DNA of 64,000 nucleotides from an uncultured Actinomycetes bacterium (GTDB lineage: Bacteria; Actinomycetota; Thermoleophilia; RBG-16-64-13). The position numbers and the translations under genes are program-made. Under the pieces are notes generated by a model. The model saw only the letters and a list, made by a program, of their open reading frames with translations. It ran no database searches and was not told the origin of the DNA. The stretch covers positions 1,034,660 to 1,098,659 of the forward strand of contig CAWFCL010000004.1 in assembly GCA_963814365.1 (NCBI GenBank), written 5' to 3'. Positions 3,780 to 60,610 of this stretch are shown one piece after another; within the stretch, counting starts at the first letter, position 1; each line of letters begins with the position of its first letter.

Positions 3780-3783
3780 TCTC

Positions 3784-4566: not shown

Positions 4567-4571
4567 GCCGT

Positions 4572-5783: not shown

Positions 5784-6824
<1,041 letters not shown>

Positions 6825-7796: not shown

Positions 7797-7798
7797 GT

Positions 7799-8734: not shown

Positions 8735-8736
8735 TC

Positions 8737-9306
8737 TCAGCCATGTTGCCCTCGGCCTCCACCTTCAACGAGACGTTCGTGATCCAACAACCGGACTTTC
8801 CAGCTGGGGTCAGTGCCATATCGGCCCAGACTACCGTCTGAGCGGATCACCCGGTGGCACGGCACCACTATCGGGATGGTGTTGCCCGCCATCACACTAC
8901 CTACCGCCCGCGCCGCTCTGGGGTATCCCGCCAGCTGCGCCAACTCTCCGTAGCTGACAGTGGAGCCGGCGGGCACACTCATGAGCGCCTCCACCGTCCG
9001 ACGCGCAAAGACACTCATCTCGTCCAGATTCCACCGGATATCCTCTGAGCACCAAGACGGCCGCTCCCCACGGAAGTATGTCTCTAGGCTAGAGACCCAA
9101 TGACGGAGCGCCGCCCGGTCCTCAGAGTTCCCTTCGCCCTCTCGTGGTCCCAGACTCGTCAGTTCTACCGGGGGCAGCTCCACCTGAGTCAGACGCCCCG
9201 CCACCAAGATCACCACGCCGTGGCCCCATGGCGTCCAGAATCCGGCCGCGCACGGACCAGCGTCCGTAGAACCCACCGCCACACTGTCAACCGGTCTTGT
9301 GTACAA
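8737..9306 (-). CDS. ogt: Methylated-DNA-protein-cysteine methyltransferase
   Basis: Active site PCHRVIRSDGSLGRYG in the C-terminal domain. Start uncertain: TTG 9306 overlaps the uvrC end, and GTG 9282 is an alternative. Confidence 0.85.
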   Translation of the reverse strand: MYTRPVDSVAVGSTDAGPCAAGFWTPWGHGVVILVAGRLTQVELPPVELTSLGPREGEGNSEDRAALRHWVSSLETYFRGERPSWCSEDIRWNLDEMSVFARRTVEALMSVPAGSTVSYGELAQLAGYPRAARAVGSVMAGNTIPIVVPCHRVIRSDGSLGRYGTDPSWKVRLLDHERLVEGGGRGQHG

Positions 9307-11152: not shown

Positions 11153-11305
11153 GGCAGGCTCAAATGGCCTTTCCAAGGTGCTTGTCTGACTTACGCTCAG
11201 GCCTTCTGTAGTGTACCGCAGCCCAGGTACACCGACTCGGGAGCGGTGGAGCCCATGATAAACTTTCACGCACATCCACCTAGACCCATTTGGACGGAGG
11301 ATCAC

Positions 11306-12952: not shown

Positions 12953-14003
12953 TATAGCTGCTCTTCTCACGAAGCTTGCCGATGCACACGGCCTCTCCGG
13001 CTATGAGGACGACGTGGCCACGATACTCAAGGAAGAGTTGGAGCCACTGGTCGACGAGGTGTCTGTCGACAGGATGGGTAACGTGGTGGGAATCCGGCGC
13101 GGCGAAGGACCCACGGTCATGGTAGCCGCTCACATGGACGAGATAGGCCTCATGGTCTCGCACGTGGACGACGAAGGCTTTCTTCGCTTCGTGCCCATGG
13201 GTGGGTGGTCCGATCAGACCATCTTGGGCCAGCGTGTGCTTGTCCACACTCGCGAGGGTAAGCGTATCCCCGCGGTGGTAGGCTCACGGCCGCCTCATCT
13301 CATGGACGCCGAAGAGCGCAAGAAGCTCGTCAAGATCAAGGACATGTTCCTCGATTGCGGGGCAGCCGATGCAGCCCAGGCTGCCGCGATGGGCATCGAG
13401 ATCGGCGCACCCGTGACTGTCGACCGGCAACTCATCCCCCTTGGGGCAGACTTGGTCACCGGCAAAGCCCTGGACAATCGCGCGGGTTGCGCAATCATGA
13501 TCGTTGCCCTCTCGCTGCTCAAAGGCCAGAAGATCAAGGCCAACGTACAGGCGGTAGGCACCGTGCAGGAAGAGGTGGGGCTGAAGGGTGCCCGCACCAG
13601 CGCCTACGGACTCTCACCGGACGTAGCCATCGCCACCGACGTGACGATCCCGGGCGACCATCCAGGTGTGACCAAGAATGACTCATCGGTGGCACTTGGC
13701 AAAGGGCCGGTGATCACCATAATAGACGCGGCTGGAAGAGGAGTCATCTCTCCGCGCCCAGTGCTACGCTGGTTGAGAGAGACCGCTGAGAAAGCCTCAC
13801 TACCGCATCAGTTGCAGGTGGGCAACGGCGGAACCACAGACGCGACCGCCATAGGTATCACCAAAACGGGCATCCCCTGCAGTGTGGTGAGCGTCGCTGC
13901 TCGCTACATACACTCGCCGGTAGAGGTTCTCTCGCTCAAGGATCTCGAACAGACCGCGGCCCTTATAGCGGCTGCCATCAGTTCGGCTCACCAGTACTTC
14001 TAG
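12945..14003 (+). CDS. M42 family metallopeptidase (glutamyl aminopeptidase / FrvX / CelM-like)
   Basis: 352 aa. N-terminus LSGYEDDV...VDRMGNVVG and overall M42 pattern. ATG overlaps the stop of the preceding gene by 8 nt. Confidence 0.85.
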   Translation: MTDIAALLTKLADAHGLSGYEDDVATILKEELEPLVDEVSVDRMGNVVGIRRGEGPTVMVAAHMDEIGLMVSHVDDEGFLRFVPMGGWSDQTILGQRVLVHTREGKRIPAVVGSRPPHLMDAEERKKLVKIKDMFLDCGAADAAQAAAMGIEIGAPVTVDRQLIPLGADLVTGKALDNRAGCAIMIVALSLLKGQKIKANVQAVGTVQEEVGLKGARTSAYGLSPDVAIATDVTIPGDHPGVTKNDSSVALGKGPVITIIDAAGRGVISPRPVLRWLRETAEKASLPHQLQVGNGGTTDATAIGITKTGIPCSVVSVAARYIHSPVEVLSLKDLEQTAALIAAAISSAHQYF

Positions 14004-15345
14004 TCCCCTGCACGCGTCGCCAGCCATTGGCGGTCCGCACGATATCCCCGGCCAGCGCAGGCGGCACGCGCCCGTGAACACCCACGTCCTCGTCACCATA
14101 TTCGAACTCGACTTGCCCCCGTTCCCTGGTCCGCGCAAGTAGATCGCCCGCTGAGTAAGGCAGCCGTTCGTCCACCTCGATCCACAACTCAGACAGGACA
14201 CTGGCTACCGCATCCTTCAAGGCGCCAAGGCCCTCACCAAGCATGGCTGAGACCCGGACTGAGATCCTGTCATCACGACCTAGAACGCCCAAAGCAGCCG
14301 TCTCGTCTCCAGGAACCAGATCCACCTTGTTGAGTACGACTATTCGAGGCTTATCTCCAGCGCCCAGCCCGTCAAGGACTTTCTGCACGGTACGGCGGTG
14401 CTCGGCCGCGTGCGGGTCCGCCACATCCACTACTTCGATCAGCGCGTCCGCCCTGGTCACCTCTTCGAGCGTCGCCTGAAATGCCTCGACCAGTTGATGG
14501 GGCAATTTGTGTATGAAGCCCACCGTGTCGCTGACTATGACCATCTGGCCCTCGCTCAAGCGTACGCGCCTTGTGGTGGGGTCGAGAGTCGCGAACAGCA
14601 TGTCTTCGACCATGGTAGCGTCCTCCCCCACCAGGGTATTGAGCAGCGTGGACTTACCCGCGTTCGTGTAGCCAACAATCGCAAGGGTCGGCAACAGTCT
14701 GCGCTCACGCGCGCGGGCTGCGGTCTCTCGCCTGGACCGCACCTCTTCCACCCGCTTACGTGTCTTCTTGATGCGCTCGCGTAACACCCTTCGGTCCGTC
14801 TCCAACTGCGTCTCGCCGGGACCACGGCGTGTACCGATGCCGCCGCCCATGCGAGACAGATGGGTCCACATCCGGGTCAGGCGAGGCAACTGATATTCGA
14901 GCCGCGCCAGTTCCACTTGGATACGCCCTTCGTGGGTGTGGGCCCGTTGAGCAAAGATGTCCAAAATGATCGCGCTCCGGTCGAGCACCTTGACCTTGAG
15001 CAGGTCCTCCAGCGCACGTTGCTGTTTGGGTGACAGCTCGTCGTCGGCCACCAGCATGGTGAAGCCCGTCTCTGACTTGGCCTGTCGCAACTCGTCGGCC
15101 TTGCCGCTGCCCAGGTAGGTCAAGGGATGGGCGGCGTCGCGGCGCTGAAGCGACCTCCCCACCACCTCGCCCCCCGCCGACTCAACCAGAGAGGCCAACT
15201 CGATCAACGACTCCTCAGCCGTCCAGCCGTCATCTCCACCGGTGTCCACCGCTATGAGATACGCGCGCTCCAGGGCCGCCTCCGCAGCGATCCCGGCTTC
15301 GCGCAGACCCGCTTCCCAGCTGCCCTTGTCTTCAACGCCACTCAC
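13978..15345 (-). CDS. hflX: GTPase HflX
   Basis: HflX N-domain plus G-domain (GYTNAGKST, DTVGF, NKVD). GTG 15345 lies 1 nt after the uvrA stop and is preceded by AAGGGGGA. The longer track ORF overlaps uvrA. Confidence 0.92.
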   Translation of the reverse strand: MSGVEDKGSWEAGLREAGIAAEAALERAYLIAVDTGGDDGWTAEESLIELASLVESAGGEVVGRSLQRRDAAHPLTYLGSGKADELRQAKSETGFTMLVADDELSPKQQRALEDLLKVKVLDRSAIILDIFAQRAHTHEGRIQVELARLEYQLPRLTRMWTHLSRMGGGIGTRRGPGETQLETDRRVLRERIKKTRKRVEEVRSRRETAARARERRLLPTLAIVGYTNAGKSTLLNTLVGEDATMVEDMLFATLDPTTRRVRLSEGQMVIVSDTVGFIHKLPHQLVEAFQATLEEVTRADALIEVVDVADPHAAEHRRTVQKVLDGLGAGDKPRIVVLNKVDLVPGDETAALGVLGRDDRISVRVSAMLGEGLGALKDAVASVLSELWIEVDERLPYSAGDLLARTRERGQVEFEYGDEDVGVHGRVPPALAGDIVRTANGWRRVQGTRSTGEPN

Positions 15346-48404: not shown

Positions 48405-49478
48405 CTACTCTGTACCCCCACGCTCTTCGTCGATTCTCTCGGCCCCCATCAGTTCCTCAAGACCGCCTATCTCAGATGGAGTGCCTATAGCGATTATGGT
48501 GTCGCCGGATTCAAGCAACGCATCCGGAGACGGGTTTGTATCGAACGCCCCTGAGTCACCTCTCCGCACCGCCAGGATCGTCGCTCCGGTGGTCTTGCGC
48601 ACAGACAGGTCTCTGATGGACCGTCCCACCGCGCAGCACTCATCACCGAGCTGCAACTCCTCTACCCGGAACTCCAGAGCACCGTCCCCTGTGACAACGT
48701 CCAAATAGTCACTCACCAAAGGCTTCAGCATCAACACGGCCATCTGCCTGCCGCCGATGCCGTAGGGCGAGACCACCCTATCCGCGCCCGCTCTCTTCAG
48801 CTTGCTGACCGTATCCTCAGAGCTGGCTCGCGCCACTATCAGCAGCCCTGGATTCAGAACTCTCGCGGACAGTGTTACGTAGATGTTGCCCGCATCAGAA
48901 CCCACCGCCGCTACAACCCCCCTAGCCCTCTTGATACCAGCGGCCTCCAAGGTCTCGTCGCTTGTGGCGTCGCCTTCCACCGCCAGATGGCCATCGCCCT
49001 CGGCCCGCTCTAGACCCTCCGCGTCGTTGTCCACGACTACGAAGTCCACCTTCTGAGCGGAGAACTGCCTGGCGACGGATTCACCGACCCTTCCGTAGCC
49101 ACAGATGATGTAATGATTCTGCAACCTCTCCACCTGTCTCCTCACCGCCCTTCTCTTGAACACCCCCGAGAGCTGCGCCTTGATCGCGTATTCGACTATC
49201 GTCCCCAGGCCATATAGGATCACCCCTACACCGCCCAAGATCAGCAACATGCTAAAGACCCTACCCGCGGTAGAGAGTGGTTGGACCTCCTTGTACCCCA
49301 CGGTAGTGATGGTGGTGACGGTCATGTACAACGCGTCCAAGAACCCCCACCGCTCTATCAGCATGTAGCCGACCGTACCGATGATGACCATCAACACGAT
49401 GGCGCCCACCACCCAAAGCAGAGTCTTTGTCTCACGCTTCAAGTCGGGCCCTTTTCGTGTCGCCGGATTGCCAACCAT
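48405..49478 (-). CDS. MthK-like two-TM ion channel with RCK (TrkA-N/TrkA-C) domains and a non-canonical filter
   Basis: Pore region TITTVGYKEV (canonical TVGYGD), then IICGYGRVG Rossmann/RCK and a TrkA-C-like tail. The ATG is preceded by TAGAAT plus 7 nt, so the mRNA is probably leaderless. Confidence 0.85.
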   Translation of the reverse strand: MVGNPATRKGPDLKRETKTLLWVVGAIVLMVIIGTVGYMLIERWGFLDALYMTVTTITTVGYKEVQPLSTAGRVFSMLLILGGVGVILYGLGTIVEYAIKAQLSGVFKRRAVRRQVERLQNHYIICGYGRVGESVARQFSAQKVDFVVVDNDAEGLERAEGDGHLAVEGDATSDETLEAAGIKRARGVVAAVGSDAGNIYVTLSARVLNPGLLIVARASSEDTVSKLKRAGADRVVSPYGIGGRQMAVLMLKPLVSDYLDVVTGDGALEFRVEELQLGDECCAVGRSIRDLSVRKTTGATILAVRRGDSGAFDTNPSPDALLESGDTIIAIGTPSEIGGLEELMGAERIDEERGGTE

Positions 49479-49691
49479 GGCGTTGATTCTAGCCGAATCG
49501 ATGCCAGCGAGTCGGACGTCAGTCGAGTGTCACCCCGAAAGTTCACCGGCCAGCGAGAGCACGAGATGACCAGTGTGTGAACACAACCCTTGACAGTTGG
49601 TAGCCCCAGCACCCACAATACCCAGGAGCCCTCCTCGGGGCGACGAGGATGGCTTGGTTCGGTTGGACGAGAATCATCAAAACCCGGAGGG

Positions 49692-49982
49692 ATGTTTATG
49701 CTCCACGAGCCCGCACAAGTAGAACACCGGGCAGACGAGGCCGCCGCCTACAAGCAGCGTCTTGGCCTCATCAATCTGGCTGTCTACAGCGTTATCTACA
49801 TTGCCTTCATCATCATCAACGTCGCTTGGCCCAAGACCATGGGGACTATCGTCGTGGCGGGTCTGAACCTCGCGATCATCTACGGCTTCGCCCTGATCGT
49901 GATCGCGTTGATCCTGGCGCTCGCCTACAACTGGGCTTGCACCAGGCATGAGAAGTCGTTCGAGAAAGAGGAGAAGGCCTGA
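49692..49982 (+). CDS. DUF485 (YjcH-like) inner-membrane protein
   Basis: 96 aa with two TM helices, immediately upstream of actP as in yjcH-actP. ATG follows GGAGGG. The track ORF starts at 49590. Confidence 0.85.
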   Translation: MFMLHEPAQVEHRADEAAAYKQRLGLINLAVYSVIYIAFIIINVAWPKTMGTIVVAGLNLAIIYGFALIVIALILALAYNWACTRHEKSFEKEEKA

Positions 49983-49983
49983 A

Positions 49984-51921
49984 ATGTCAACGGATGTCAA
50001 GCCTCTTGCAATAGTCCTCTTTCTCCTGATCGTAGGCCTAGTTCTGTTCATATCCTTCTGGACCGCGCGCAAAGCCAAGTCTGCTAGCGGCTATTACGCG
50101 GCCGGAGGACGTATTCACTGGGGCATAAACGGAATAGCGTTCGCAGGCGACTATCTTTCGGCGGCCTCATTTCTTGGTATCTGCGGTCTGATCGCCGTTT
50201 CCGGCTACGACGGCTTCTTATACTCTATCGGCTACCTGGCCGGCTGGGTGGTGGCTCTGTTCGTGGTCGCCGAGCCCATGCGTCGCCTGGGCAAATACAC
50301 GTTCACAGACGCCATGGACTCGAAGTTCGACAAGCGCGGTCTGAAGCTTTGGGCAGCCATAGCTACGCTCATCGTCTCCATCTTCTACCTGATACCGCAG
50401 ATGGTAGGGGCCGGGGTGCTGATAGAACCGTTGCTGGGCCTGCCACATTGGGCCGGTGTGGTCATAGTGGGCGCGATCGTCATAACCATCGTCGCCACCG
50501 CCGGTATGACGTCTACCACGTATGTCCAGTTCATCAAGGGTGCCCTGCTAATCACTTTCGCCCTAGTGATCTGCATAGCCCTGCTCGTCCGCGGACTTTC
50601 CACCGAGCCCGACCAGGGTGGAACCGTACCCTTCTATGAGTACCAGACCGTCACCGCGACGACTGGGGCGGATGGGACTATAGTCCCGGATGATTCTTCA
50701 TACGAGGTCCTTGCCGTTCACACCGATGAAGCCAAGGGTCTCACCTTCGTCAAGCTGGACGACGGTCAGAGGGCCACATGGTGGAAGGCGCAGACGGACG
50801 ACGCCGGAGCCGTGGTGGCACTTCACGAGGGTCAAGAAATCGTGACCATGGCGGACGGCACCAAGTTCATCAATGGTGCTGAGGAGTCAAAAGACAACGA
50901 CCTTCGCCAGGTCGGCAACCTTCCGGTCATCCAAGGTAAGAGCGACACCGAGACCGGAGGCCTCAGCCCCTGGAAATTCCTCGCCGTTATCGGCGACAAG
51001 ACGACCACGGTCAACCTATGGAAGTCCTACTCGTTCACCGACGGCGAAGATAGCGTTTCCGTCTACTACGAGAAACCGGTGCCCGGCGACACCATCATGA
51101 GGCCAGGCGCTAAATTCAAGCTCGACGCGGGTTCCTGGGTCGACAGGATCGACTTCATCTCTCTGATGATCGCCCTATTCCTAGGCACCGCTTCGCTGCC
51201 GCATATCTTGATCCGCTACTACACCGTCCCCAGCCAGCGCGCAGCCAGGAAGTCGACCGTAGTCGCCATTGCGGCTATCGGGTTTTTCTACATCTTGACG
51301 CTGTTCTTGGGCTTGGGAGCGATGTCCAGTGCGACGATCAACCCGCTCGACAACAACATGTCGGCGCCGCTTCTGGCACAAGCGTTCGGGACGTTCTTGT
51401 TCGCGATGATCTCGGCGATCGCGTTCGCCACTGTCCTTGGAACCGTGAGCGGTCTTATCGTCGCGTCCTCTGGCGCGGTAGCCCACGACCTACTCGACCG
51501 CTACGCCGGACGCATCCACAGCGAGAGGCAGAAGGTCGTTGCAGGCAGGCTCGCCGCAGTTCTGATAGGCGCCATCGCCATTCTGCTCGGCATCGTCTTT
51601 CAGGGGATCAACGTGTCGTTCCTGGTCGGCCTTGCGTTTGCAGTCGCCGCTTCGGCCAACCTACCGGGCATCATCATGATGCTCTTCTGGAAGCGGACCA
51701 CCTCAAAAGGCATGATCGCCTCCATCATCGTCGGAATCGTGATCTCGGTAGGCATCATCCTGCTATCGCCTACGGCCTGGGAGCTGTACGGTCTCACGCC
51801 AGCGGACGCACCGATTCCTCTGAACAACCCCGGGATCTTCTCAATACCGGCAAGCTTCCTCGCCATCTATCTGGTGTCGAAGCTGACCAAGAGGGACATG
51901 CTCGAAGAGCACTCCAAGTAG
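49984..51921 (+). CDS. actP: Cation/acetate symporter ActP (SSF family) with a long hydrophilic insertion
   Basis: SSF motifs (GYYAAGGRI, GTASLPHILIRYYT). ATG lies 1 nt after the DUF485 stop. A ~185-aa hydrophilic segment is encoded at 50593-51147. Confidence 0.9.
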   Translation: MSTDVKPLAIVLFLLIVGLVLFISFWTARKAKSASGYYAAGGRIHWGINGIAFAGDYLSAASFLGICGLIAVSGYDGFLYSIGYLAGWVVALFVVAEPMRRLGKYTFTDAMDSKFDKRGLKLWAAIATLIVSIFYLIPQMVGAGVLIEPLLGLPHWAGVVIVGAIVITIVATAGMTSTTYVQFIKGALLITFALVICIALLVRGLSTEPDQGGTVPFYEYQTVTATTGADGTIVPDDSSYEVLAVHTDEAKGLTFVKLDDGQRATWWKAQTDDAGAVVALHEGQEIVTMADGTKFINGAEESKDNDLRQVGNLPVIQGKSDTETGGLSPWKFLAVIGDKTTTVNLWKSYSFTDGEDSVSVYYEKPVPGDTIMRPGAKFKLDAGSWVDRIDFISLMIALFLGTASLPHILIRYYTVPSQRAARKSTVVAIAAIGFFYILTLFLGLGAMSSATINPLDNNMSAPLLAQAFGTFLFAMISAIAFATVLGTVSGLIVASSGAVAHDLLDRYAGRIHSERQKVVAGRLAAVLIGAIAILLGIVFQGINVSFLVGLAFAVAASANLPGIIMMLFWKRTTSKGMIASIIVGIVISVGIILLSPTAWELYGLTPADAPIPLNNPGIFSIPASFLAIYLVSKLTKRDMLEEHSK

Positions 51922-51949
51922 GTCGGACTTTCAGTCGGCCCAAGACAAA

Positions 51950-51990
51950 GGCCGCCGGATGTGATCCACATCCGGCGGCCTTTTCTTTGT
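51950..51990. terminator. Bidirectional intrinsic terminator between actP and the convergent satP-like gene
   Basis: GGCCGCCGGATGTG-atc-CACATCCGGCGGCC (14-bp perfect stem) followed by TTTTCTTTGT. The complement is preceded by CTTTGTCTT-type sequence. Confidence 0.85.
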
Positions 51991-52012
51991 ACTCCAGAAA
52001 GGCTTACCTCTT

Positions 52013-53089
52013 CTAGAAGAAGTCCTTCTCTGGGAGGGGTTGACCCGTGTATCCAGCCGTCGCGTAGTACACGGCCTTGTCAAAGAACCGACCCAACTCC
52101 CTGTTGAGATCTACTGCCCGCTGCAGATCTGCAGCCGACTCCCACAGGCCATGAGTACGCGCGGTCATCCAGATTTCGCGCTTCAGCAGCAGAGTCGCGC
52201 TGATCAACTCGGACAACGGTAGCTTCTGTGCCGAGCGAGTAGCTCCCAGGTTGTAGAAGAACTCTCCGATCTCCGCGTCGGCGGGTTGGCCGCCGAAGTA
52301 AGAGTCGACCTGGCTAAGGGCGAATTCGCTGGAGCTCACCAACTCCTTGTCAGACACCGCACCGTAGGAGGGTGTCTGGGGGCTCTGGCGCAACGCCTGC
52401 AGCCAGAGTTCGGCGATCTCGTCACCGTGCTGGACGACGAAGCCCTTGGGCAGATGGCTTACCGGCCCCAGTGGCAGGACTACCTTCCTATAGACTTCGT
52501 TGAGCGTCTGAGCGGCCGCTGTGTAGATGGCAGCTAGGCCGGTCGCTATACCTTCCCATCCAGCTATCTTCTGCATGACAGAAGCGGCGTCGGTATATCC
52601 GCCGGTCTTCAAGAAGTTCTCGGTCGCAAGCAAGAAGAACAGTACGGTCAACAGACCGAACACGACCTGCAACGCGCGGTTAAGCTTCAACGTGCCGATG
52701 TACATATAGCCCGTGAAGACACCCCACAACACGAAATACCAGGCGAGTGCCGTGCTGGTGCTACCGGCCGCAGCGTCGGCCTGGGGAAACAGCGTCGGCA
52801 TGAGCCATATGCCGGCCAGGCTCAGCCAAAACAGGCCATAGGAAGTAAAGGCCAACGTGCCGAAGCTGTTGTTCTTCTTCCACTCCATGATGCCGGCGAT
52901 GATCTGAGCGATGCCACCGTAGAACACACCCATCGCCAAGATCATGGCGCTGAGACCATAGAAACCGGCGTTGTGGATGTTGAGCAGTACGGTGGTGAGG
53001 CCGAATCCCATGAGCCCTAACGGCGCCGGATTAGCGTTCGTATCGAGCAGTTTGGTCACGGTCTCGTTCGCGGCGACAGTGTTTGCCAT
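52013..53089 (-). CDS. satP: SatP/YaaH (GPR1/FUN34) acetate-succinate channel fused to a C-terminal RsbR-N-like helical domain
   Basis: The N-terminal ~210 aa are near-collinear with the YaaH family ([14 protein letters not shown]..., FYGGIAQ, ...VLPLG). An extra ~146 aa (52016-52453) reads [14 protein letters not shown]...LKREIW... Start at ATG 53089 (other ATGs up to 53143). Confidence 0.85.
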
Positions 53090-53234
53090 ATGCAGCATTC
53101 CTTCCATGTGTTTGCAGGATTGTTCCACGTAGCTATCGATCACTGGAGTGAAGTTCCGGTGCTAAGCAGGCGCGGGTCGGCGCAGAATATACCCGCCCGC
53201 CACCACTTCTGTCTACTGACAGACGCAATCTTGT

Positions 53235-53240
53235 AGAATG
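53235..53240 (+). promoter_or_regulatory. Candidate -10 box (TAGAAT) for the PHP/DUF294 operon
   Basis: TAGAAT lies 32 nt upstream of GTG 53273, with SD GAGAGGG in between. The palindrome TCTGTC-N4-GACAGA sits just upstream (53209-53224). Confidence 0.45.
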
Positions 53241-53272
53241 GCAACACGCCAGTAGCGCGCTGAGAGGGTCTT

Positions 53273-54079
53273 GTGATCGAAACGATCAGGGTCGACCTAC
53301 ACTGCCATTCATCGTTGAGCGATGGGGACCACTCTCCAGCCTACGTAGCCCACTCCATAGCGGCCACTGGTGCTGAGGGGGCGGCCCTCACCGACCATAA
53401 CACCGTGTCAGGGCAGCACCAGTTCCGTGCCGTTCTCGAGCGGCGAGGGGTCCGCTCTGTGGTCGGCCTGGAGATGGACGCCCGCTCACCCATCGGGGTG
53501 CTACACCTTTTGGGCTACGGGTTCAACCCCGAACACCAGCCCCTTCTGGACGCCTTATGCACCCTACGGCAACCGCTGAGAGCCTCTGCCAGGTACTGGA
53601 TGGAACGTCTTGTGGCCTTGGCCCCAAAGAGATCTGGCGGAATCGACAAGCCTTCACTTGGCCCGTCGGTCCCTGAACCTCCAAAACCGCCTTCCACCGC
53701 CGAGGTAATAGGCCTGCTGCACGATGCTGGAGGTCTGGCGTTCTTGGCACATCCGCTTGCTGGTGTTGGGAACGTGCAGAATCTAGAGAGAGTGCTTGAG
53801 TGGTTACAACCCGAGGGGTTGGACGGCATGGAAGTCTTCCACAAACCATATTCAAGCGAGACCCAGCAATCGCTGCTCGACATGGCGCTTCGCCGACACC
53901 TTCTGTGCATCGCCGGCAGCGATTTTCATGGTATACATCATTCTGATGGCTCCAGCCCCGGGGTCGATATGCCCTTGGTACACTGGAAGGAGTTCTTGGC
54001 CGCGTTGGACTGCGGCGTAACCGAGGGCTCGCCCTCAAGAAAGGTCGACAGGCTCGCAAGAGAGAAGGGGGCACGTTGA
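53273..54079 (+). CDS. PHP-domain metal-dependent phosphoesterase (TrpH/YciV-like)
   Basis: PHP motifs in order: DLHCHSSLSDG, LTDHNT, GLEMD, LAHP, GMEVFH, AGSDFHG. 268 aa. Confidence 0.85.
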   Translation: MIETIRVDLHCHSSLSDGDHSPAYVAHSIAATGAEGAALTDHNTVSGQHQFRAVLERRGVRSVVGLEMDARSPIGVLHLLGYGFNPEHQPLLDALCTLRQPLRASARYWMERLVALAPKRSGGIDKPSLGPSVPEPPKPPSTAEVIGLLHDAGGLAFLAHPLAGVGNVQNLERVLEWLQPEGLDGMEVFHKPYSSETQQSLLDMALRRHLLCIAGSDFHGIHHSDGSSPGVDMPLVHWKEFLAALDCGVTEGSPSRKVDRLAREKGAR

Positions 54080-57048
54080 ATACTGATAGCGGTCTCATGG
54101 GCAGATTGTTCCCTCAAAGATGGGGCGGCTTCTTGCTCAGGATCGTCCTCCCTGCCGTCTTAGCCGTAGCCCTCTTCATACTTGCCGTCTTTCTGATCCT
54201 TATCCCGTCCGTCGAGACACAACTCCTCGACGGCAAGAAGCAGACCACCCAAGAGCTCACTAGAGCCGCCATAAGCATCCTCGACGAGTACTACGCTGAA
54301 CAGTCCTCCGGCCGCATGACTCAAGAGCAGGCGCAGACAGAGGCGGCCGCCCGTATAGAACTGCTGCGCTACGGAGACGAGGGGCTCGACTACTTCTGGA
54401 TAACGGACACTCACCCCACGATGGTGATGCACCCCTATCTCCCGGAGCTCAACGGTCAGGATCTTACCGACTACCCCGACAAGCGAGGCAAGAAGCTCTT
54501 CGTTGCGTTCGTAAATGAGGTAGAGGATGACGGGTCGGGCTTCGTGGATTACTACTGGCAATGGAAAGACGATCCAGATCGTGTGGTCCCGAAACTCTCG
54601 TACGTTGAGCTGTTTGAACCGTGGGATTGGATCATCGGCACGGGCATATACATCGAGGATGTGAATGCCGCGATCGCCCGCTTTCAAAGGTATCTGAGTT
54701 ACATCTCCTTGGCCATTATCGCCGCCACGGCGCTCCTCCTGTTCTACAGTGCCAGACAGAGCCTCAAAATCGAACGTCGCCGCGCAAGCGCGGAGCAGGG
54801 CCTCAAGGAATCGAACGAGAAGTACATGGCCCTCGTGGCAGCAGCCACCGAAGGCATCCTGATGACCCTGGACGGCAAGTGCGCGTACACTAACAGACCA
54901 CTCCAGGACATGCTCGGTTATGAGCCCCGGGAACTGTCGGACATGCTGACGTCGCTACTTCTGCTGAACGAGACTCCAGCCGATGAGCGGGCGATCGGAT
55001 ACATCCAGAACCTAGGGTCTACGGGCCTCGACACACCTGTCGACCTCTTGCCCCCTCCGACCTTTGAGGCCCGCTTACGCGCCAAAGATGGTCGAGTAGT
55101 CGACTCCCTGGTCACGGCCACCCCGATCTCGCTCGCGGGCAAGCACGGGGTGATACTCATCGTACGCAGCACTGCGGCTCAGAAGGCCATGCAGTCGGCT
55201 TTCGAGGAGTCCAGACGACAGTTCCTAACCATGTCGGACGCACTGGAACTAGGGGTATTCAGGAGCAGTTGGGGCAAACGCGCCACCTTGCTGGAGGCCA
55301 ATCCTGCAATGCGCAAGATCCTCCAATTGCCCGATAGTGCCAACCTGGGCGATTGCGATTGGCTGGACAAGATAGTCGATGTCGAGGAAAGAAGAGCCCT
55401 AGTCGATCGACTGAACAAGGACAAGGTCGTCCAGGACTACCGTCTCGGACTGTGGAGTGACGATGGCGGACGCACAGAAGTGTCGCTGTTTGCAGTCTTA
55501 GTCGATGACGACAAGGGCGAACCCAGGTACTGCGACGGCATCGTCGAGGACGTCACCAGACGGACGAGGGGCGAACACGAGCGAGAGGCGTTGATAGCTC
55601 AACTGCAGACCTCCCTCTTCTACCTGCGCGAACCCATCAACCGTGCGGTGAAACCGGCTCTGTCGCTTGAGATGGGCGAGAGCATACGCCGAGCCGCCTC
55701 TTTGATGAACAAGAGCGGGGCGAGCGCCGTGTTCGTCAACGCACCCGACGGCGAGTTGATGGGGATAGTCACCGACCATGACTTCCGCGAACGCGTCATT
55801 GCGACGAACCTCGACCAAGACGCGACACTGCGAGCGATCATGACGGCACCCGTCGATTCAATCTCTCTAGACTCTCCCGTATACGAGGCCATGCTCATGA
55901 TGCAGGAGCGTGGTGTCGAGAATCTGGCAGTGAAGGACGACTCTGGCAAGTTGGTCGGAATCCTCCGGCTCGGCGATCTGATGCGCTATCAGCAATCCTC
56001 CTCGGTGATAGTCACCGAGTCTATTCGGCGAGCTGCTTCTCTTGACCAGATCGTCGAGGCTCACGACAGATTGCCAAGCCTCGTTGCTGCTGTTGTTGAA
56101 TCCGGAGCGGATACCCGCTACGTCAATCGCATTATCTCTGGAGTGTCCGACACCACAGTCCAACGGTTGCTCGCTATGGCCCTGGATGAACTCGGACCCG
56201 CCCCTACACCTTTTGCCTTTCTGGCACTCGGTAGCGAGGGACGCGAAGAACAGACTCTGCTCACCGACCAGGACAACGCGCTCGTCTACGACGATCCGCC
56301 AAAGGACAAGGCGGATGAGACCTCCGAGTACTTCCTGCGCCTGGGCACCCTCGTCTGCGACTGGCTAGACCAAGTCGGATACTACTATTGTGACGGTGGC
56401 GTCATGGCCAAGAACCCACGCTGGAACTTGTCTCGCTCGGTGTGGAAACAACAATTCTCGCGCTGGATACACAACGCCGACCCACAGGAGCTGCTGGAAC
56501 TCAACATGCTCTTTGATTTCCGGTGCGTGGCAGGTCAGCAGCAGTATGCGCGCGAACTACGAACTTGGGTATTCGACGAGATGCAGGCATACCCGCTCTT
56601 CTTCATCCATTTCGCCCAGAACGCTCTCTCTTTCAAACCGCCTTTGACGGTCCTAGGCAACATTCAGACGACCTCCTCCGAGCAAGGCGACAAGGTCCTA
56701 AGCCTGAAAGAAGCTTTGATGCCTGTGGTCAACTTCGCTCGTCTTTACGCGCTGAAGCATCGCATCGACTCTACCAACACCCTTGATCGCCTGTTCGAGT
56801 TGAAAGACCGTGGCGTCATCAGTCGCGAGTCCTATGAGGAGATCGTGCCTGACTACGAGACCTTGATGCGCATCCGGCTACAGAAGCAGGCCATGGCGAT
56901 GGAAGACAACCGCAAACCGAGCAACACGATCTCACCAAGCGAGATCTCTTCGGGAGAAGAGGCCAGACTCAAGCGTCTCTTCTCGGTAGCCGCCGATCTG
57001 CGCAAGAAAATGAGCTTCGATTTCCTTGGGGGAATCACGGGATTCTAG
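54076..57048 (+). CDS. Membrane sensor protein: TM-sCache-TM-PAS-PAS-CBS pair-DUF294 nucleotidyltransferase-DUF294_C
   Basis: Cache-like periplasmic region (DYFWITDTHPTMVMHPY...YYWQWKDD...PKLSYVELFEPWDWIIGTGIY) between two TM helices; PAS (SNEKYMALVAAATEGIL...); CBS pair; NTase motif GSEGREEQTLLTDQDNALV; C-terminal substrate-binding-like domain. TTG start overlaps the PHP stop (TTGA) after GAGAAGGGGG. ATG 54097 is an alternative. Confidence 0.8.
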   Translation: MNTDSGLMGRLFPQRWGGFLLRIVLPAVLAVALFILAVFLILIPSVETQLLDGKKQTTQELTRAAISILDEYYAEQSSGRMTQEQAQTEAAARIELLRYGDEGLDYFWITDTHPTMVMHPYLPELNGQDLTDYPDKRGKKLFVAFVNEVEDDGSGFVDYYWQWKDDPDRVVPKLSYVELFEPWDWIIGTGIYIEDVNAAIARFQRYLSYISLAIIAATALLLFYSARQSLKIERRRASAEQGLKESNEKYMALVAAATEGILMTLDGKCAYTNRPLQDMLGYEPRELSDMLTSLLLLNETPADERAIGYIQNLGSTGLDTPVDLLPPPTFEARLRAKDGRVVDSLVTATPISLAGKHGVILIVRSTAAQKAMQSAFEESRRQFLTMSDALELGVFRSSWGKRATLLEANPAMRKILQLPDSANLGDCDWLDKIVDVEERRALVDRLNKDKVVQDYRLGLWSDDGGRTEVSLFAVLVDDDKGEPRYCDGIVEDVTRRTRGEHEREALIAQLQTSLFYLREPINRAVKPALSLEMGESIRRAASLMNKSGASAVFVNAPDGELMGIVTDHDFRERVIATNLDQDATLRAIMTAPVDSISLDSPVYEAMLMMQERGVENLAVKDDSGKLVGILRLGDLMRYQQSSSVIVTESIRRAASLDQIVEAHDRLPSLVAAVVESGADTRYVNRIISGVSDTTVQRLLAMALDELGPAPTPFAFLALGSEGREEQTLLTDQDNALVYDDPPKDKADETSEYFLRLGTLVCDWLDQVGYYYCDGGVMAKNPRWNLSRSVWKQQFSRWIHNADPQELLELNMLFDFRCVAGQQQYARELRTWVFDEMQAYPLFFIHFAQNALSFKPPLTVLGNIQTTSSEQGDKVLSLKEALMPVVNFARLYALKHRIDSTNTLDRLFELKDRGVISRESYEEIVPDYETLMRIRLQKQAMAMEDNRKPSNTISPSEISSGEEARLKRLFSVAADLRKKMSFDFLGGITGF

Positions 57049-57075
57049 TCGCCCCCAGGCGACCCTCGCTCCACC

Positions 57076-57109
57076 CACGAGCGGCCTGGACTAACCCAGG
57101 CCGCTCGTG
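57076..57109. terminator. Perfect 14-bp hairpin between convergent genes
   Basis: CACGAGCGGCCTGG (57076-57089), 6-nt loop, CCAGGCCGCTCGTG (57096-57109). No U-tract. Abuts the permease stop. Confidence 0.5.
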
Positions 57110-57965
57110 TCACCTCTGCCTACGCCTGCGCCTGCGCCTCCACATCCTCACAAGACCCTTCTGCGGCGACAATACGAAAGTGATCATGAAGAATGCCGTC
57201 GCCAGCAGCACCATGGCCCCGCTCGGAGAGACATCGAGGTAGTAGCTCAGAAACAGTCCACCGACGGAAGCCAGAGCACCCAGACACGCTGACAGCGCCA
57301 TCATCGTCGCCAGTCTTCGTGTCACGAGATAGGCGGTAGCAGGTGGAGTCACGAGCATGGCAGCAACGAGCGCGACCCCTACAGTACGCAGCGAGAACCA
57401 CTATGGTCAGAGCAAGCATCATGAAGAGCGTGGTACGAAGAAGTCCAGTGCGTAGACCCAGCGTCTGTCCAAAGACGGGGTCGAACGAGACTACCAGCAG
57501 GCGTCGGTATAGCAGCCCTACAGCGGCCAACACCAGCAATGCCAAGCCCCCGCTCAGCCATAGATCTCCCTCGCTGACCCCAAGTACGTTGCCGAACAAC
57601 ACGTGAGTGAGATCCACCGCATACCCCTCCATGGTGCTGATAAGCACTACCCCAAGGGCCAACGCCGCGGCAAAGAAGATCCCGATCGCGGTGTCCTCTC
57701 GCACCACCCCGCTGCGTGATACGTAGCTGATGCCAGCAGCTACGACAACAGCTGCGATCAGGGCACCCACAAGCAGGTTCCCCCCCACCAGAAAAGCTAC
57801 GGCCACCCCCGGCAAGATGGCATGAGCCAGAGCGTCACCCAGGAAAGCCATGGACCGCAGCACGACATAGCAGCCCACGACCGCGCATAACACGCCCACG
57901 ATGAGCGAAGCCGCAAGTGCGCGCTGCATGAATCCGAGGCTGAAGGGTTCTGTCAGCCAACTCAT
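57110..57965 (-). pseudogene. ABC-3 family metal (Zn/Mn/Fe) transporter permease, interrupted by an apparent 1-nt insertion near 57395
   Basis: The frame from ATG 57965 is canonical up to ...MMLALTIVV and then becomes R/C-rich nonsense. The +1 frame continues SLRTVGVALVAAMLVTPPATAYLVTRRL... and ends at 57110. Confidence 0.85.
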
Positions 57966-57967
57966 AC

Positions 57968-58804
57968 CTATCGTTCCGCCCCTCGAGTGTGCTCTTCACC
58001 GCACGCGTCACATTGACAGCTGTCGATGGCTCCTACCGGTCCGTGGCCACCACAACACTGGTCCACCACAACCGACTTTCCATCCACCACCACCATCTGC
58101 CCACCAAAAGCATCGGCTAGGTTCTTCTGGGTGAACACCTGCTCGGGAGTGCCAAAGCTCACTAGACAACCATTCAACAGAGCGAGTCTGTCAAATCTGC
58201 CTGCCGCCATGTCCAGATCGTGCGTAGACACCAACACCGTCACGTCCCGGTCCCTCAGCTCCCCCAGCAGATCGAAGATCGCTTCCCGAGTAGCCAAGTC
58301 CACTCCGGTCAATGGCTCATCGAGCAGCAGCACATGCGGATCTTGGGCCAGCGCGCGAGCCAAGAACACCCGCTGTTGCTGCCCTCCCGACAATTCTCCG
58401 ATAGGTCTGCCAGCAAGATCGGATAGGCCGAGCCGCCCCATGCTCGCCTCAATGACTTCCCGGTCCGCGGCGGACAACCTCGCAAGCCAGCCACGCCGTC
58501 CGTACCTACCCATGGACACCACGTCGCGCACCGTGACCGGGAAGCGCCAATCCACTTCCTCTCTTTGGGGGACGTAGGCCACCACGTCGCCGTGCTCAGC
58601 CGGGGGCCGGCCGTGTATGAGTATCTGCCCCTGCCGCAGAGGCAGAAGCCCGACCAGGGCCTTGAACAGCGTAGACTTCCCGGCACCGTTGGGGCCTATC
58701 ACAGCGACTTGGGCGCCGTGCGGGATGCTCACCGTCATGGACTCCAACGCAGGACGATCGCCGTAGTAGACGCTCACATCCTTGAGCTCCAACGAACCCG
58801 TCAA
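57968..58804 (-). CDS. Metal ABC transporter ATP-binding protein with Cys-rich C-terminal tail
   Basis: Walker A GPNGAGKST, signature LSGGQQQR, Walker B LLLDEP. Tail reads DQCCGGHG...DSCQCDACGEEH. TTG start after GAGAGG. Confidence 0.9.
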   Translation of the reverse strand: MTGSLELKDVSVYYGDRPALESMTVSIPHGAQVAVIGPNGAGKSTLFKALVGLLPLRQGQILIHGRPPAEHGDVVAYVPQREEVDWRFPVTVRDVVSMGRYGRRGWLARLSAADREVIEASMGRLGLSDLAGRPIGELSGGQQQRVFLARALAQDPHVLLLDEPLTGVDLATREAIFDLLGELRDRDVTVLVSTHDLDMAAGRFDRLALLNGCLVSFGTPEQVFTQKNLADAFGGQMVVVDGKSVVVDQCCGGHGPVGAIDSCQCDACGEEHTRGAER

Positions 58805-58814
58805 ATCACGCCTC

Positions 58815-59714
58815 TCACTTGAGCGCTTCTACTATCTTGGAGACGTTCCACCGCATCATCTCAATGTAAGTGGAAGCGCCCGGCCCCAAAGAGTGTGTGT
58901 ACAAATCGGTGACTACCGTCGCTCCGGTGGCTTCTCCCACCTGTTCAGCCAGCTCACTGTCGCCGCCGCTCTCCAAGAATATGGCTGGGGCACCGGATTG
59001 CAGTATCGCGTCGATCAGTTCGGCGATCCGTCGCGCAGACGGGCTGCCTTCTCCTGTGGTAGTAGGAAAGACCGCCCCGACGAGCTCGAACCCGTACCTT
59101 TCCGCGAATCGGCCAAGACTCTCGTGATCGGTCACCAATAGCCGTTGACCTGGAGGGATCGAATCCACCTGTGTTCTTATCCATGAGTCTAAGCCACGCA
59201 ACGTCTCAGCATAGACGGCTGCGTTCTCTGCATATGTCTCGGCCCCGGCCGGGTCCAATGCGCCAAGGCCAGCAGCGATGTTCTCTACGTACGTGACCAC
59301 CGATATGGGATCAAGCCAGCAGTGTGGGTCGTCCTGCAAACCGGGCAGCCCGAAGGCGGCCTCTATAACCGGCCTCTCCTTGCCTCTCACTCCCTCTAGC
59401 AGATCGTCAACGGCAGGCGCCAATCCGGCTACATTGATGACCATCGCGCGACATTCCGCGATGCAGCCGGCGTCCCTGGGTGTAGGTTCGAAGGTGTGTG
59501 GGTCGGCGCCCTGAGGAATGAGTGACGACACAGTCAGCCGACTGCCTGCTACGTTGCCGACAATATCGGCCAGAAAACTGGTATCGGCGACTATGTCCGC
59601 GCAACCCGAAGACAAGAGGCCGGCTTCAGCGTCCTCGCCTGTCGTGCATCCCACCAGGCAGACCAACAAAGCCAGCAAGAGAGCCACCCCTGCCGGTACT
59701 CTGACAAGTCCCAC
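58815..59714 (-). CDS. Metal ABC transporter substrate-binding lipoprotein (ZnuA/TroA/MntC family)
   Basis: Family-9 SBP character. GTG 59714 follows GGAGGGGGA and yields the lipoprotein signal VGLVRVPAGVALLLALLVCLVGC. The track ORF extends to 59858, across the hisG end. Confidence 0.85.
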   Translation of the reverse strand: MGLVRVPAGVALLLALLVCLVGCTTGEDAEAGLLSSGCADIVADTSFLADIVGNVAGSRLTVSSLIPQGADPHTFEPTPRDAGCIAECRAMVINVAGLAPAVDDLLEGVRGKERPVIEAAFGLPGLQDDPHCWLDPISVVTYVENIAAGLGALDPAGAETYAENAAVYAETLRGLDSWIRTQVDSIPPGQRLLVTDHESLGRFAERYGFELVGAVFPTTTGEGSPSARRIAELIDAILQSGAPAIFLESGGDSELAEQVGEATGATVVTDLYTHSLGPGASTYIEMMRWNVSKIVEALK

Positions 59715-59740
59715 CTTATCCCCCTCCGCAGACCCCTTTG

Positions 59741-60610
59741 TCACATGACGATCTTGTTGAGCGGATATTCGACTATCCCCTGCGCACCAGCCTTCTTGAG
59801 TCTGGGGATGATGACGCGGACAGTGGACTCGTCGACGATGGTATTGACCGCCAACCACCCTTCGTCACTGAGAGTGGATATGGTGGGGTTGCGCAACGCC
59901 GGCAGTTCACTCAAGACAGATTTCAACTCCTCGCGCCGTACGTTGAGCATCAGCCCGACCTTGCCGAGCGCCGACATCGCCGCCTCCAGCAGCATGGCCA
60001 TGTCCTCCAGCTTGTGCCGCTTCTCCGGATCTTTCCAAGAATCGCCGTTGGCGATCAATTGGGTGTTCGATTCCAAGACCGTTTCGACGATACGGAGCTT
60101 GTTTGCCCTAAGAGAACTGCCTGTCTCGGTGACCTCGACTATGGCGTCCGCCAGTTCCGGCGGCTTGACCTCCGTCGCGCCCCAGCTGAATTCCACTTGG
60201 GCGTTCACGCCGTTGTCGCTGAGGTACCGCTTGGTGGTGGCCACCAGCTCGGTGGCGATGATCTTGCCCTCCAAGTCCGCCACACTGGTCACCTGCGAAG
60301 CCTCAGGGACCGCCAGCACCCACCGCACTTTGCCGTAGCTCTGCTTGGCATAGACCAGGTCGCACACAGTATGTACGCTCGCCTCGTTCTCCCGGACCCA
60401 GTCCAGACCGGTGATACCGGCATCGAGTATGCCGTTCTCAACGTATCGCGCCATCTCCTGAGCGCGCACCAACAAGCACTCCAACTCCGGATCATCGATG
60501 ACCGGAAAGTAGGACCTATGACTTGTGGTCAGATTGAAGCCGGCACGACGGAACAGGTCGATGGTGGCCGACTCGAGACTGCCTTTGGGTATTCCTATCT
60601 TGAGTATCAT
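59741..60610 (-). CDS. hisG: ATP phosphoribosyltransferase (long form)
   Basis: [12 protein letters not shown]... with the C-terminal regulatory domain, 289 aa from ATG 60610. That ATG lies 7 nt after a TATAAT box, so the mRNA is probably leaderless. The track ORF extends to 60820. Confidence 0.9.

Follow-up and report, generated by a model that had tools for sequence, protein, structure and literature searches.

A PHP phosphoesterase and a membrane sensor-nucleotidyltransferase of the DUF294 family form a probable acetate-linked module in an uncultured actinobacterium

We analyzed a 64,000-nucleotide stretch of DNA, referred to here as the window, from an uncultured bacterium of the Thermoleophilia (Actinomycetota; GenBank contig CAWFCL010000004.1, positions 1,034,660 to 1,098,659 of the forward strand), and in it a pair of overlapping genes that encode a metal-dependent phosphoesterase of the PHP family and a large membrane protein in which sensory domains are joined to a nucleotidyltransferase (NTase) of the DUF294 family. 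Our data indicate that the two proteins very probably constitute a single functional module with an input of the acetate type and a link to monocarboxylate transport. As to its chemistry, we hypothesize that the NTase writes a nucleotide onto a protein and that the PHP enzyme erases it, a proposal in which the nucleotidyl transfer, the protein acceptor, the role of the PHP enzyme and the direction of regulation are all inferred and to which we give slightly less than an even chance. The genes and domains of the pair are the following.

53273..54079, + strand: PHP-family (TrpH/YciV-like) metal-dependent phosphoesterase of 268 aa with a GTG start, the proposed hydrolase ("eraser").
54076..57048, + strand: membrane sensor-nucleotidyltransferase of 990 aa with a TTG start, comprising a transmembrane (TM) segment, sCache_2, a second TM segment, PAS, PAS, a CBS pair, DUF294 and DUF294_C.
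54229..54690, + strand: sCache_2, extracytoplasmic and predicted to sense C2/C3 carboxylates of the acetate type (residues 52-205, PF17200, E 9.8e-42).
54820..55569, + strand: two cytoplasmic PAS domains, presumed to relay the signal (PAS, residues 249-364, E 1.7e-8; PAS_4, residues 404-498, E 4.3e-5; TIGR00229, E 5e-10).
55648..55995, + strand: CBS pair, at about residues 525-640 (Pfam CBS E 1.7e-17 in two stretches; CBS-pair matches in PDB).
56068..56487, + strand: DUF294 core, a nucleotidyltransferase of the Pol-beta type (PF03445, residues 665-804, E 4e-47, 160 bits against a cut-off of 21).
56596..57024, + strand: DUF294_C, a helical substrate-binding domain of the KNTase_C clan, as in GlnD/GlnE (PF10335, residues 841-983, E 1.5e-36, 125.8 bits against a cut-off of 22.5).

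The tetranucleotide TTGA at 54076-54079 supplies both the TGA stop codon of the PHP gene and the TTG start codon of the NTase gene, a 4-nt overlap. A purine-rich, Shine-Dalgarno-like sequence, GAAGGGGG, ends 4 nt 5' of this TTG, and the next ATG (54097) has no comparable site. An earlier note on this DNA had described both reading frames and their overlap, a complete set of PHP motifs, an NTase motif at about nt 56230, and Cache, PAS, CBS, DUF294, DUF294_C and PHP domains. The two frames and the tetranucleotide were found as described, all nine PHP metal ligands are present, the NTase motif starts exactly at nt 56230, and every one of the domain models gave a significant Pfam match. An exact-sequence search for the PHP and NTase genes of the window found neither recorded.

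To place the pair among its relatives, GTDB species genomes were scanned with the family alignment and the best 80 of >600 pattern matches were retained; counts below are given over 81 loci. Neighboring open reading frames (ORFs) were clustered and then annotated with Pfam, and hidden Markov models (HMMs) of esterases were built from the clusters adjacent to the NTase. In 15 of the 81 loci, from Chloroflexota, Armatimonadota, Sumerlaeota, Lentisphaerota, Planctomycetota, Spirochaetota and Thermoleophilia, the PHP domain is fused to the N terminus of the NTase protein, and about one quarter of the best 120 homologues of the large protein likewise carry PF02811 in front of a Cache-PAS-CBS-DUF294 body (1190-1275 aa in all). 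One such fusion, a single gene of 1222 aa in a Thermoleophilia metagenome-assembled genome (MAG; locus L001), lies in exactly the synteny of the window, with Fpg, ArgRS, a TrkA channel, DUF485, SSF and SatP genes followed by a Znu ABC transporter and HisG. The PHP domain as a separate upstream gene, at 0-45 nt or overlapping, was seen only in the actinobacterial clade of the window (the window itself, L003, L004, L006 and L083-L085). A rough neighbor-joining tree of the NTase module (343 columns) grouped the PHP-linked NTases in one clade, with the split form on its actinobacterial branch. The pairing in the window is not due to chance, as both genes are found together or as a fusion in many genomes, and because several independent genomes have the split form with a different junction in each, the separate genes are not a frameshift artefact of sequencing. 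By sequence comparison, the two-gene layout is best described as a fission or fusion variant of a PHP-NTase unit that is elsewhere a single polypeptide.

The PHP protein itself matched PF02811 with an E value of 2.9e-8 (34.6 bits against a cut-off of 26.4), and its nine metal ligands (H10, H12, D17, H42, E67, H78, H160, D217 and H219) are kept in all 15 of the full-length partner PHP domains. Its best NCBIfam matches were nside_bi_sphtase (3',5'-nucleoside bisphosphate phosphatase; 100.8 against a cut-off of 400) and RNaseRnm (RNase RNM; 77.7 against 375), both scores being far under the equivalog cut-offs. The matches in PDB were 3e0f (E 1.7e-21), 2yb1 and 7ug9; the alignment to 3e0f falls into two segments, and the stretch between the two aligned halves is Pro-rich and ~35 residues shorter than in 3e0f. 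The protein thus shares the PHP fold and the complete metal-ligand set with TrpH/YciV-type enzymes such as the Cv1693 pAp phosphatase (2yb1), E. coli RNase AM (7ug9) and the Bifidobacterium adolescentis protein (3e0f), but differs from them in its sub-cut-off scores and in that its gene is dedicated to, or fused with, a DUF294 NTase. Its homologues make up a distinct subfamily of ~263 aa with 40-75 % identity, against ~33 % for generic TrpH, and similarity falls sharply between the two (from E 1e-39 to E 1e-27-31). A reciprocal test gave a consistent picture: PHP homologues at 50-58 % identity always had the NTase as the next gene, whereas a generic TrpH at 33 % stood among housekeeping genes without an NTase, and three members of the subfamily that were picked for contigs outside the NTase match list were all in DUF485-SSF-SatP-PHP-NTase-Znu synteny. 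Taken on these sequence data, PHP and NTase are very probably one functional unit.

The PHP enzyme is one of several phosphoesterases that accompany DUF294 NTases, and the partners in the census were distributed as follows.

PHP (TrpH-like), 18 loci: fused in 15, and separate, 32-45 nt upstream, in 3 (actinobacterial).
Calcineurin-like metallophosphoesterase (Metallophos), 28 loci: three subfamilies, which lie immediately upstream, immediately downstream or overlapping, or convergent.
PAS + RNase_T exonuclease, 13 loci: adjacent or within 3.5 kb, mostly with the cyclic-nucleotide-binding (cNMP)-CBS-DUF294 proteins of Desulfobacterales.
AP_endonuc_2 (Endo-IV-like) TIM barrel, 3 loci (L008, L010 and L068): convergent and adjacent, beside Cache-type NTases.
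GAF + HD_5 (HD-GYP-type) protein, 1 locus (L016, 8699-9871, + strand): directly upstream of a Cache-type NTase, on the same strand.
No partner detected, 18 loci: nine of them at contig ends.

A partner esterase of one of these five kinds, fused or adjacent, was therefore present in 63 of the 81 loci. The esterase HMMs, with the caveat that they derive from the adjacent clusters, gave 60 matches among ~1,230 ORFs, 54 of which were fused to the NTase or within 110 bp of it, and nearly all of the adjacent genes (36/39) were on the NTase strand. Because partners are so frequent and their matches so closely confined to the NTase, an esterase, of whatever fold, appears to be required. The RNase_T partner of Desulfobacterales resembles DnaQ and the PolC proofreading domain (2p1j, E 1e-34; ε subunit, E 4e-18); comparison of the Metallophos partners with solved structures yielded no informative relatives and did not narrow their substrate. 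The exonuclease HMM found nothing in the close actinobacterial relatives of the window save a convergent gene in L047, its other matches being at other loci. The earlier note had expected a DnaQ-like exonuclease beside cNMP-type DUF294 proteins, which is what the Desulfobacterales have, and had proposed that a DEDD exonuclease was exchanged for a PHP esterase in the window. PHP and RNase_T do interchange, but the exchange is not confined to two classes: judged by sequence family, it covers at least three superfamilies and probably five, AP_endonuc_2 and HD being a possible fourth and fifth with too few cases to be sure. What such hydrolases share would be the ability to cut, in a metal-dependent reaction, the phosphoester linkage to a nucleotide. 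In Desulfobacter latus (L057) two convergent Cache-PAS-CBS-DUF294 paralogues (9977-12469, + strand, and 12487-15081, - strand) were observed with an RNase_T exonuclease 1.9 kb upstream.

The N-terminal half of the 990-aa protein is a predicted sensor. Its Cache domain stands between two hydrophobic segments (residues 15-53 and 205-227) and would therefore lie outside the cell, with the remaining domains in the cytoplasm. Against PDB, the Cache domain matched 4k08, the acetate-bound sensor of Adeh_3718, with E 1.7e-35, and 5g4y/5g4z, the sensor of PscD, with E 3e-33. All seven pocket residues of PscD (Y90, W92, H103, F126, Y143, W145 and K156; numbering from PMC5062169 and PMC3831638) are identical in the window protein (Y106, W108, H119, F142, Y159, W161 and K173), and all seven of these acetate/propionate pocket residues are invariant in family alignment A1, which holds 20 relatives. 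PscD has a KD of 31 µM for acetate and also binds glycolate, propionate and pyruvate (PMC5062169). The outer domain is accordingly predicted, from this conservation, to bind a C2/C3 monocarboxylate, most likely acetate, with propionate or pyruvate also possible. The likeness to the chemoreceptor sensors of PscD, McpP and Adeh_3718 comprises the sCache_2 fold between two TM helices and the seven ligand-contacting residues. Those receptors, however, have an MCP domain or else a histidine kinase as their output, whereas in the window protein, in which Pfam found no HisKA, HATPase or MCPsignal domain, it is a nucleotidyltransferase. The CBS pair is likely to provide an adenine-nucleotide or energy input, one that is common to the classical cNMP-type members of the family.

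The genes around the pair connect it with acetate transport.

49590-49982, + strand: DUF485 (YjcH-like) small membrane protein (Pfam DUF485 E 3.7e-9).
49948-51921, + strand: ActP/MctC-like monocarboxylate permease of the SSF family (SSF E 1.8e-68; NCBIfam MctC E 1.4e-132 and ActP E 5e-127, both under their cut-offs).
51947..51983, no strand: very strong bidirectional intrinsic terminator (17-bp stem with 11 G-C pairs) that separates ActP from SatP, which is convergent to it.
52013..53143, - strand: SatP/AceTr acetate channel with a C-terminal extension (NCBIfam AceTr_1 E 1.4e-73), divergent from the PHP-NTase pair.
53144..53272, no strand: promoter region between the divergent SatP gene and PHP-NTase operon; three blocks in it are kept in seven related genomes (alignment A4).

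The coordinates and the 17-bp-stem hairpin agree with the earlier description of the pair as divergent from a SatP-fusion gene and one terminator away from DUF485-ActP. In 55 of the 81 loci a gene for an SSF permease (together with its small subunit, DUF485 or DUF4212), for acetyl-CoA synthetase (Acs) or for both lay within 6 kb of the NTase, often as the next gene on the same strand, and across phyla DUF485-SSF genes are the most widely conserved neighbors of the NTase other than the esterases. SatP adjoins the NTase only in the actinobacterial clade and in one distant case. The expectation that the PHP gene and the transporters would be conserved neighbors of the NTase thus held across phyla for the PHP partner, which is fused in 15 loci, and for DUF485-ActP, but for SatP only within the actinobacterial clade.

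The prediction that the widespread DUF294 proteins are regulatory nucleotidyltransferases dates from 1999, and the family and its association with an exonuclease and actP are already known, though uncharacterised. The Cache/PAS/PHP architecture is not peculiar to the window; it is widespread in metagenomes, with 1,987 matches, and some members carry the NCBI names [quoted passage not shown] or "cache domain-containing protein". With the classical proteins (PA3233/PA3232, PP_0354/PP_0353, and Pflu5625 of Pseudomonas fluorescens) the window protein has in common the CBS pair, DUF294 and DUF294_C, with an identity of 36-44 % to the cNMP-type members of the census, and, at the level of gene order, a hydrolase gene adjacent in the operon and an association with actP-yjcH/acs. 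The classical input is a cytosolic cNMP domain, whereas in the window it is a TM-sCache_2-TM-PAS-PAS membrane sensor, and the classical hydrolase is an RNase_T exonuclease, whereas in the window it is a TrpH-like PHP esterase. The replacement of the cNMP module by a Cache/PAS input, which the earlier note had proposed, was borne out: the window protein has no match to the cNMP-binding model PF00027, which is present in census members L043 and L076, and has sCache_2 and PAS domains instead. What it had said of the PA3232-PA3235 context was also sound, as that P. aeruginosa locus includes ActP (and responds to propionate). In P. putida, PP_0354 (cNMP, 2xCBS, NTase) shares an operon with PP_0353 (RNase_T). 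This operon is directly targeted by MxtR/ErdR (CrbS/R, the acetate regulon) and is among the genes most strongly dependent on it; the P. aeruginosa homologues of the two genes adjoin actP-yjcH. The window protein itself appears to sense acetate, whereas the Pseudomonas genes are turned on transcriptionally by CrbS/R.

The C-terminal half of the 990-aa protein keeps the catalytic signature of a Pol-beta-type nucleotidyltransferase core. Its catalytic motif, GSEGREEQTLLTDQDNALV, begins at residue 719 (nt 56230), and the G719-S720...D731-x-D733 signature spans 56230-56286, with D814 as the third aspartate. G719, S720, D731, D733 and D814 are invariant in alignment A1, whose 20 relatives have 41-77 % identity, and also in alignments A2 and A3, which include cNMP-type members. 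DUF294_C and the C-terminal domains of GlnD/GlnE are placed in one Pfam clan (PMC3710099). An AlphaFold2 model of residues 648-990 had a pLDDT of 86.8 and a pTM of 0.86, and when it was compared with PDB by Foldseek, only four matches were significant, all of them protein AMPylases, with TM-scores of 0.62-0.64 and E values of 4e-8 to 3e-6. These were the N-terminal domain of GlnE (1v4a, E 4e-8), DrrA in complex with Rab8a (6yx5, chain B, E 1.9e-7) and two chains of the GlnE adenylylation domain (3k7d, E 9e-7). The alignments to GlnE and DrrA extend over DUF294_C, at a sequence identity of only 12-13 %. A second tier, at E > 0.07, consisted of aminoglycoside nucleotidyltransferases and an MNT antitoxin; CD-NTase, cGAS/OAS, poly(A) and CCA enzymes gave nothing significant in this search, and no CD-NTase appeared at E<1. 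Pfam found neither GlnE (PF03710) nor GlnD_UR_UTase (PF08335) in the window protein, and weak matches to such models occur in relatives (L043, PF08335, E 6e-4; P0107, PF03710). According to the model, the NTase is built on a GlnE/DrrA-like scaffold, yet it is not a member of those families at the level of sequence.

These observations can be joined in the following mechanism. An external C2/C3 monocarboxylate, most likely acetate, would bind the extracytoplasmic sCache_2 domain, and the signal would cross the second TM segment and the two PAS domains, be integrated with a reading of adenine-nucleotide (energy) status by the CBS pair, and set the activity of the GlnE/DrrA-like NTase. The NTase would then most probably attach an NMP (AMP or UMP) to the hydroxyl of a side chain in a protein by which the uptake or activation of monocarboxylates is controlled, candidates being the ActP-DUF485 permease, SatP and acetyl-CoA synthetase, and the co-translated PHP phosphodiesterase would hydrolyse the phosphodiester and so reset the switch. 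A protein acceptor is likely because, in the modeled structure, the only significant fold matches are protein AMPylases, and because DUF294_C belongs to the GlnD/GlnE clan. Known enzymes of this kind also have dedicated removing activities that are kept separate, namely the HD domain of GlnD, the AR domain of GlnE and, for DrrA, SidD. GlnD is an NTase with an HD uridylyl-removing domain, and beside this precedent we cite, for a protein acceptor, the GAF-HD partner in L016. The window protein resembles GlnE, GlnD and DrrA (SidM) in its NTase and helical KNTase_C-type fold, but has no ACT, HD or second NTase domain and has other sensory inputs; its genomic context is acetate, whereas that of GlnE/GlnD is nitrogen.

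More tentatively, and as an outcome that we think rather less probable than its converse, DUF294 proteins with their interchangeable esterases could represent a previously unrecognised, phylum-spanning system of reversible protein nucleotidylylation beside GlnD/GlnE, one that gates the uptake or activation of monocarboxylates post-translationally, the direct signal being extracellular acetate for the Cache type or cNMP for the classical type. If so, the pair in the window may be the split form of a receptor, writer and eraser that is elsewhere a single polypeptide.

Several observations weigh against writing and erasing on a protein, or against the breadth of the module. The partner families (DnaQ-like DEDDh, TrpH/RNase AM-type PHP and Endo-IV-like enzymes) are best known for acting on nucleic acids and nucleotides, not on protein-NMP bonds. 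Profile comparison with E. coli GlnD and GlnE by hhalign was not significant (probabilities of 4.3 % and 2.3 %), although the G[GS]...DxD signatures were in the correct register; the kinship with GlnE and DrrA consequently rests on predicted fold. Searches of PDB with the NTase module by sequence and profile returned only CBS matches or noise, and there is no solved DUF294 structure. No esterase partner was seen in 18 of the 81 loci, and 26 had no transporter or Acs gene within 6 kb, including three with fused PHP-NTase genes (L002, L007 and L035). The census is itself biased toward relatives of the query, consists mostly of MAGs, and used gene calls from a simple ORF heuristic. Deletion mutants in Pseudomonas had no defect on acetate and a moderate one on pyruvate and propionate only, and in the literature to September 2026 no activity, acceptor or hydrolase substrate was reported for any DUF294 protein.

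Alternatively, the NTase, on sensing external acetate, could make a diffusible signal, such as a cyclic or linear nucleotide or a short oligonucleotide, that the partner esterase would degrade and through which a receptor would control acetate uptake. Synthase-hydrolase fusions are typical of second-messenger enzymes (GGDEF/EAL and CD-NTase systems serve for comparison), and our fusion and adjacency data would fit such a signal equally well. Each partner superfamily, moreover, includes known (oligo)nucleotide phosphodiesterases: the closest PDB and NCBIfam matches of the PHP protein are of the TrpH/Cv1693 type, active on pAp and 5'-phosphorylated oligonucleotides, while the L016 partner is of the HD_5/HD-GYP type and the DEDDh partner is DnaQ-like. 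We nevertheless consider a messenger unlikely. The folds of the messenger synthases are absent from the significant structural matches, which are to GlnE and DrrA only, the C-terminal domain belongs to the GlnD/GlnE/KNTase_C type and differs from that of such synthases, no candidate receptor gene was conserved in the census loci, and PADLOC gave no matches.

An acceptor that is itself RNA or an oligonucleotide is improbable in our assessment. The NTase would here add nucleotides to a 3' end that the partner nuclease trims, tuning the expression or translation of acetate-utilisation genes. The alternation of DEDD and PHP domains is known from the proofreading of replicative polymerases and has a parallel in the partners described above, which resemble a DnaQ/PolC proofreading exonuclease (2p1j), RNase AM (7ug9) and an Endo-IV-like TIM barrel; an RNase-T-like role for PP_0353 has also been raised by the authors of a 2026 preprint. 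On the other hand, the enzyme is membrane-anchored, Pfam detected no nucleic-acid-binding domain in the 990-aa protein, and its fold is not like those of templated or untemplated polymerases, a minor-editosome TUTase appearing only at E ~1. By an Rfam scan of 49400-57400, the locus contains no conserved RNA element, and the Metallophos partners have no nuclease-like solved relative.

The second tier of structural matches raises the thought that the NTase adenylylates the hydroxyl of a metabolite, in the manner of the ANT, KNT and Lnu enzymes, with the esterase recycling the adduct. Aminoglycoside nucleotidyltransferases (7uy4, 6sxj, 1kan and AadA) were found at Foldseek E values of 0.07-0.4, and they have a KNTase_C-type domain. 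We regard this as quite improbable: the matches to these enzymes are weak, with TM-scores of 0.24-0.34 where GlnE and DrrA reach 0.62-0.64, detoxifying NTases do not typically have elaborate sensory domains in front or lie beside transporters, and no biosynthetic genes are conserved nearby.

That the PHP protein is merely a housekeeping TrpH or pAp phosphatase upstream of an unrelated sensor gene, as its best NCBIfam matches taken by themselves might suggest, is effectively refuted by the in-frame fusions in 15 loci of at least seven phyla and by the reciprocity data, in which close homologues always stand beside the NTase and a generic TrpH at 33 % in an unrelated context, as well as by scores far under the equivalog cut-offs. 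An anti-phage defence module was rejected, even though pairs of an NTase and a nuclease occur in defence systems and the generic DEDDh domain of the Desulfobacterales partner matches a CRISPR-associated DEDDh model, given that neither window protein has a PADLOC match, that the synteny in relatives is stable and of a housekeeping kind (Fpg, ArgRS, TrkA channel, Znu ABC and HisG), and that the conserved neighbors are acetate transporters and Acs.

Returning to reversible nucleotidylylation of a protein, the Cache/PHP variant brings three things that are missing from the classical proteins. Its ligand is predicted, as acetate or a different C2/C3 acid, and can be supplied from outside the cell. 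The fusion of PHP to the NTase is a "Rosetta stone" that marks the hydrolase as part of the same machine, and the interchange of esterases at one position points, as far as can be inferred, to a shared cleavage of nucleotidyl phosphodiesters. Together, the fusion, the interchange and the acetate pocket make the DUF294 family approachable by experiment. In the searchable literature we found no account of the PHP fusion, of esterase interchange across superfamilies or of the conservation of the acetate pocket. If the protein-modification reading is true, it would add a new post-translational layer of control on the uptake of short-chain fatty acids in many environmental and gut phyla.

The conserved blocks of the divergent promoter region are GACACTATAC, TTGTCCA and the invariant TCTTGTAGAAT, and these blocks resemble -10 and -35 elements of both strands. 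A promoter-like match on the minus strand, TAGACA-18-TATATT, lies at 53215-53186. A palindrome, TCTGTC-N4-GACAGA (~53209-53224), was considered as an operator and ruled out, as it is not conserved in relatives and the conserved blocks are promoter-like. An Rfam scan of 49400-57400 gave just one match, below threshold (31.9 bits against a gathering score of 45), of the terminator hairpin to the Pseudomonas sRNA P17, and it most likely reflects nothing but the hairpin.

Some further features of the transporters were noted. The ~150-aa C-terminal cytoplasmic extension of SatP is RsbRD_N-like, that is, similar to the N-domain of stressosome sensors; in the window this similarity is weak (E 0.0018), and RsbRD_N is an unmarked Pfam match in the 351-aa SatP orthologues of L001, L083, L084 and L085. 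This fusion of a channel to a sensor appears to be limited to the actinobacterial clade. The SSF permease has an insertion of ~160 aa (residues ~215-378) that is not in the ActP and MctC models, the NCBIfam matches being split into 15-214 and 379-651. A long SSF form of 630-660 aa also adjoins the NTase in Chloroflexota, Lentisphaerota, Bacteroidota and others, and it appears to be a transporter subfamily of its own that accompanies DUF294. The insertion was considered as a cytoplasmic target of the NTase and dropped, as simple positive-inside reasoning puts it outside the membrane. The called starts of both genes are probably too early: homologues of DUF485 begin at MLHEP (~nt 49698) rather than at TTG 49590, and those of ActP align from ~M13 (ATG 49984, 1 nt after the DUF485 stop). 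With corrected starts, the DUF485-ActP junction would be tight, as in L003. In L084, the ActP gene (2643-4624) and the NTase gene (6820-9754) are each broken into two ORFs, probably by assembly frameshifts in this ENA contig.

A regulator of the Crp/Fnr family (cNMP_binding + HTH_Crp_2) was observed near Cache-type NTase loci in Bacteroidota and Actinomycetota (L025, 12858-13592, - strand; L030, 9381-10070, - strand; L003, 15492-16223, - strand; and at the ends of L083/L084), and none was seen in the window between 46000 and 64000. Downstream of the NTase and convergent to it, at 57120-59858 (- strand), is a Znu-type metal ABC transporter with an ABC-3 permease, an ATPase and a ZnuA-like binding protein. 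Its position is kept in all close actinobacterial relatives (L001 and L083-L085), which is probably plain synteny, although PHP enzymes are Zn/Mn-dependent.

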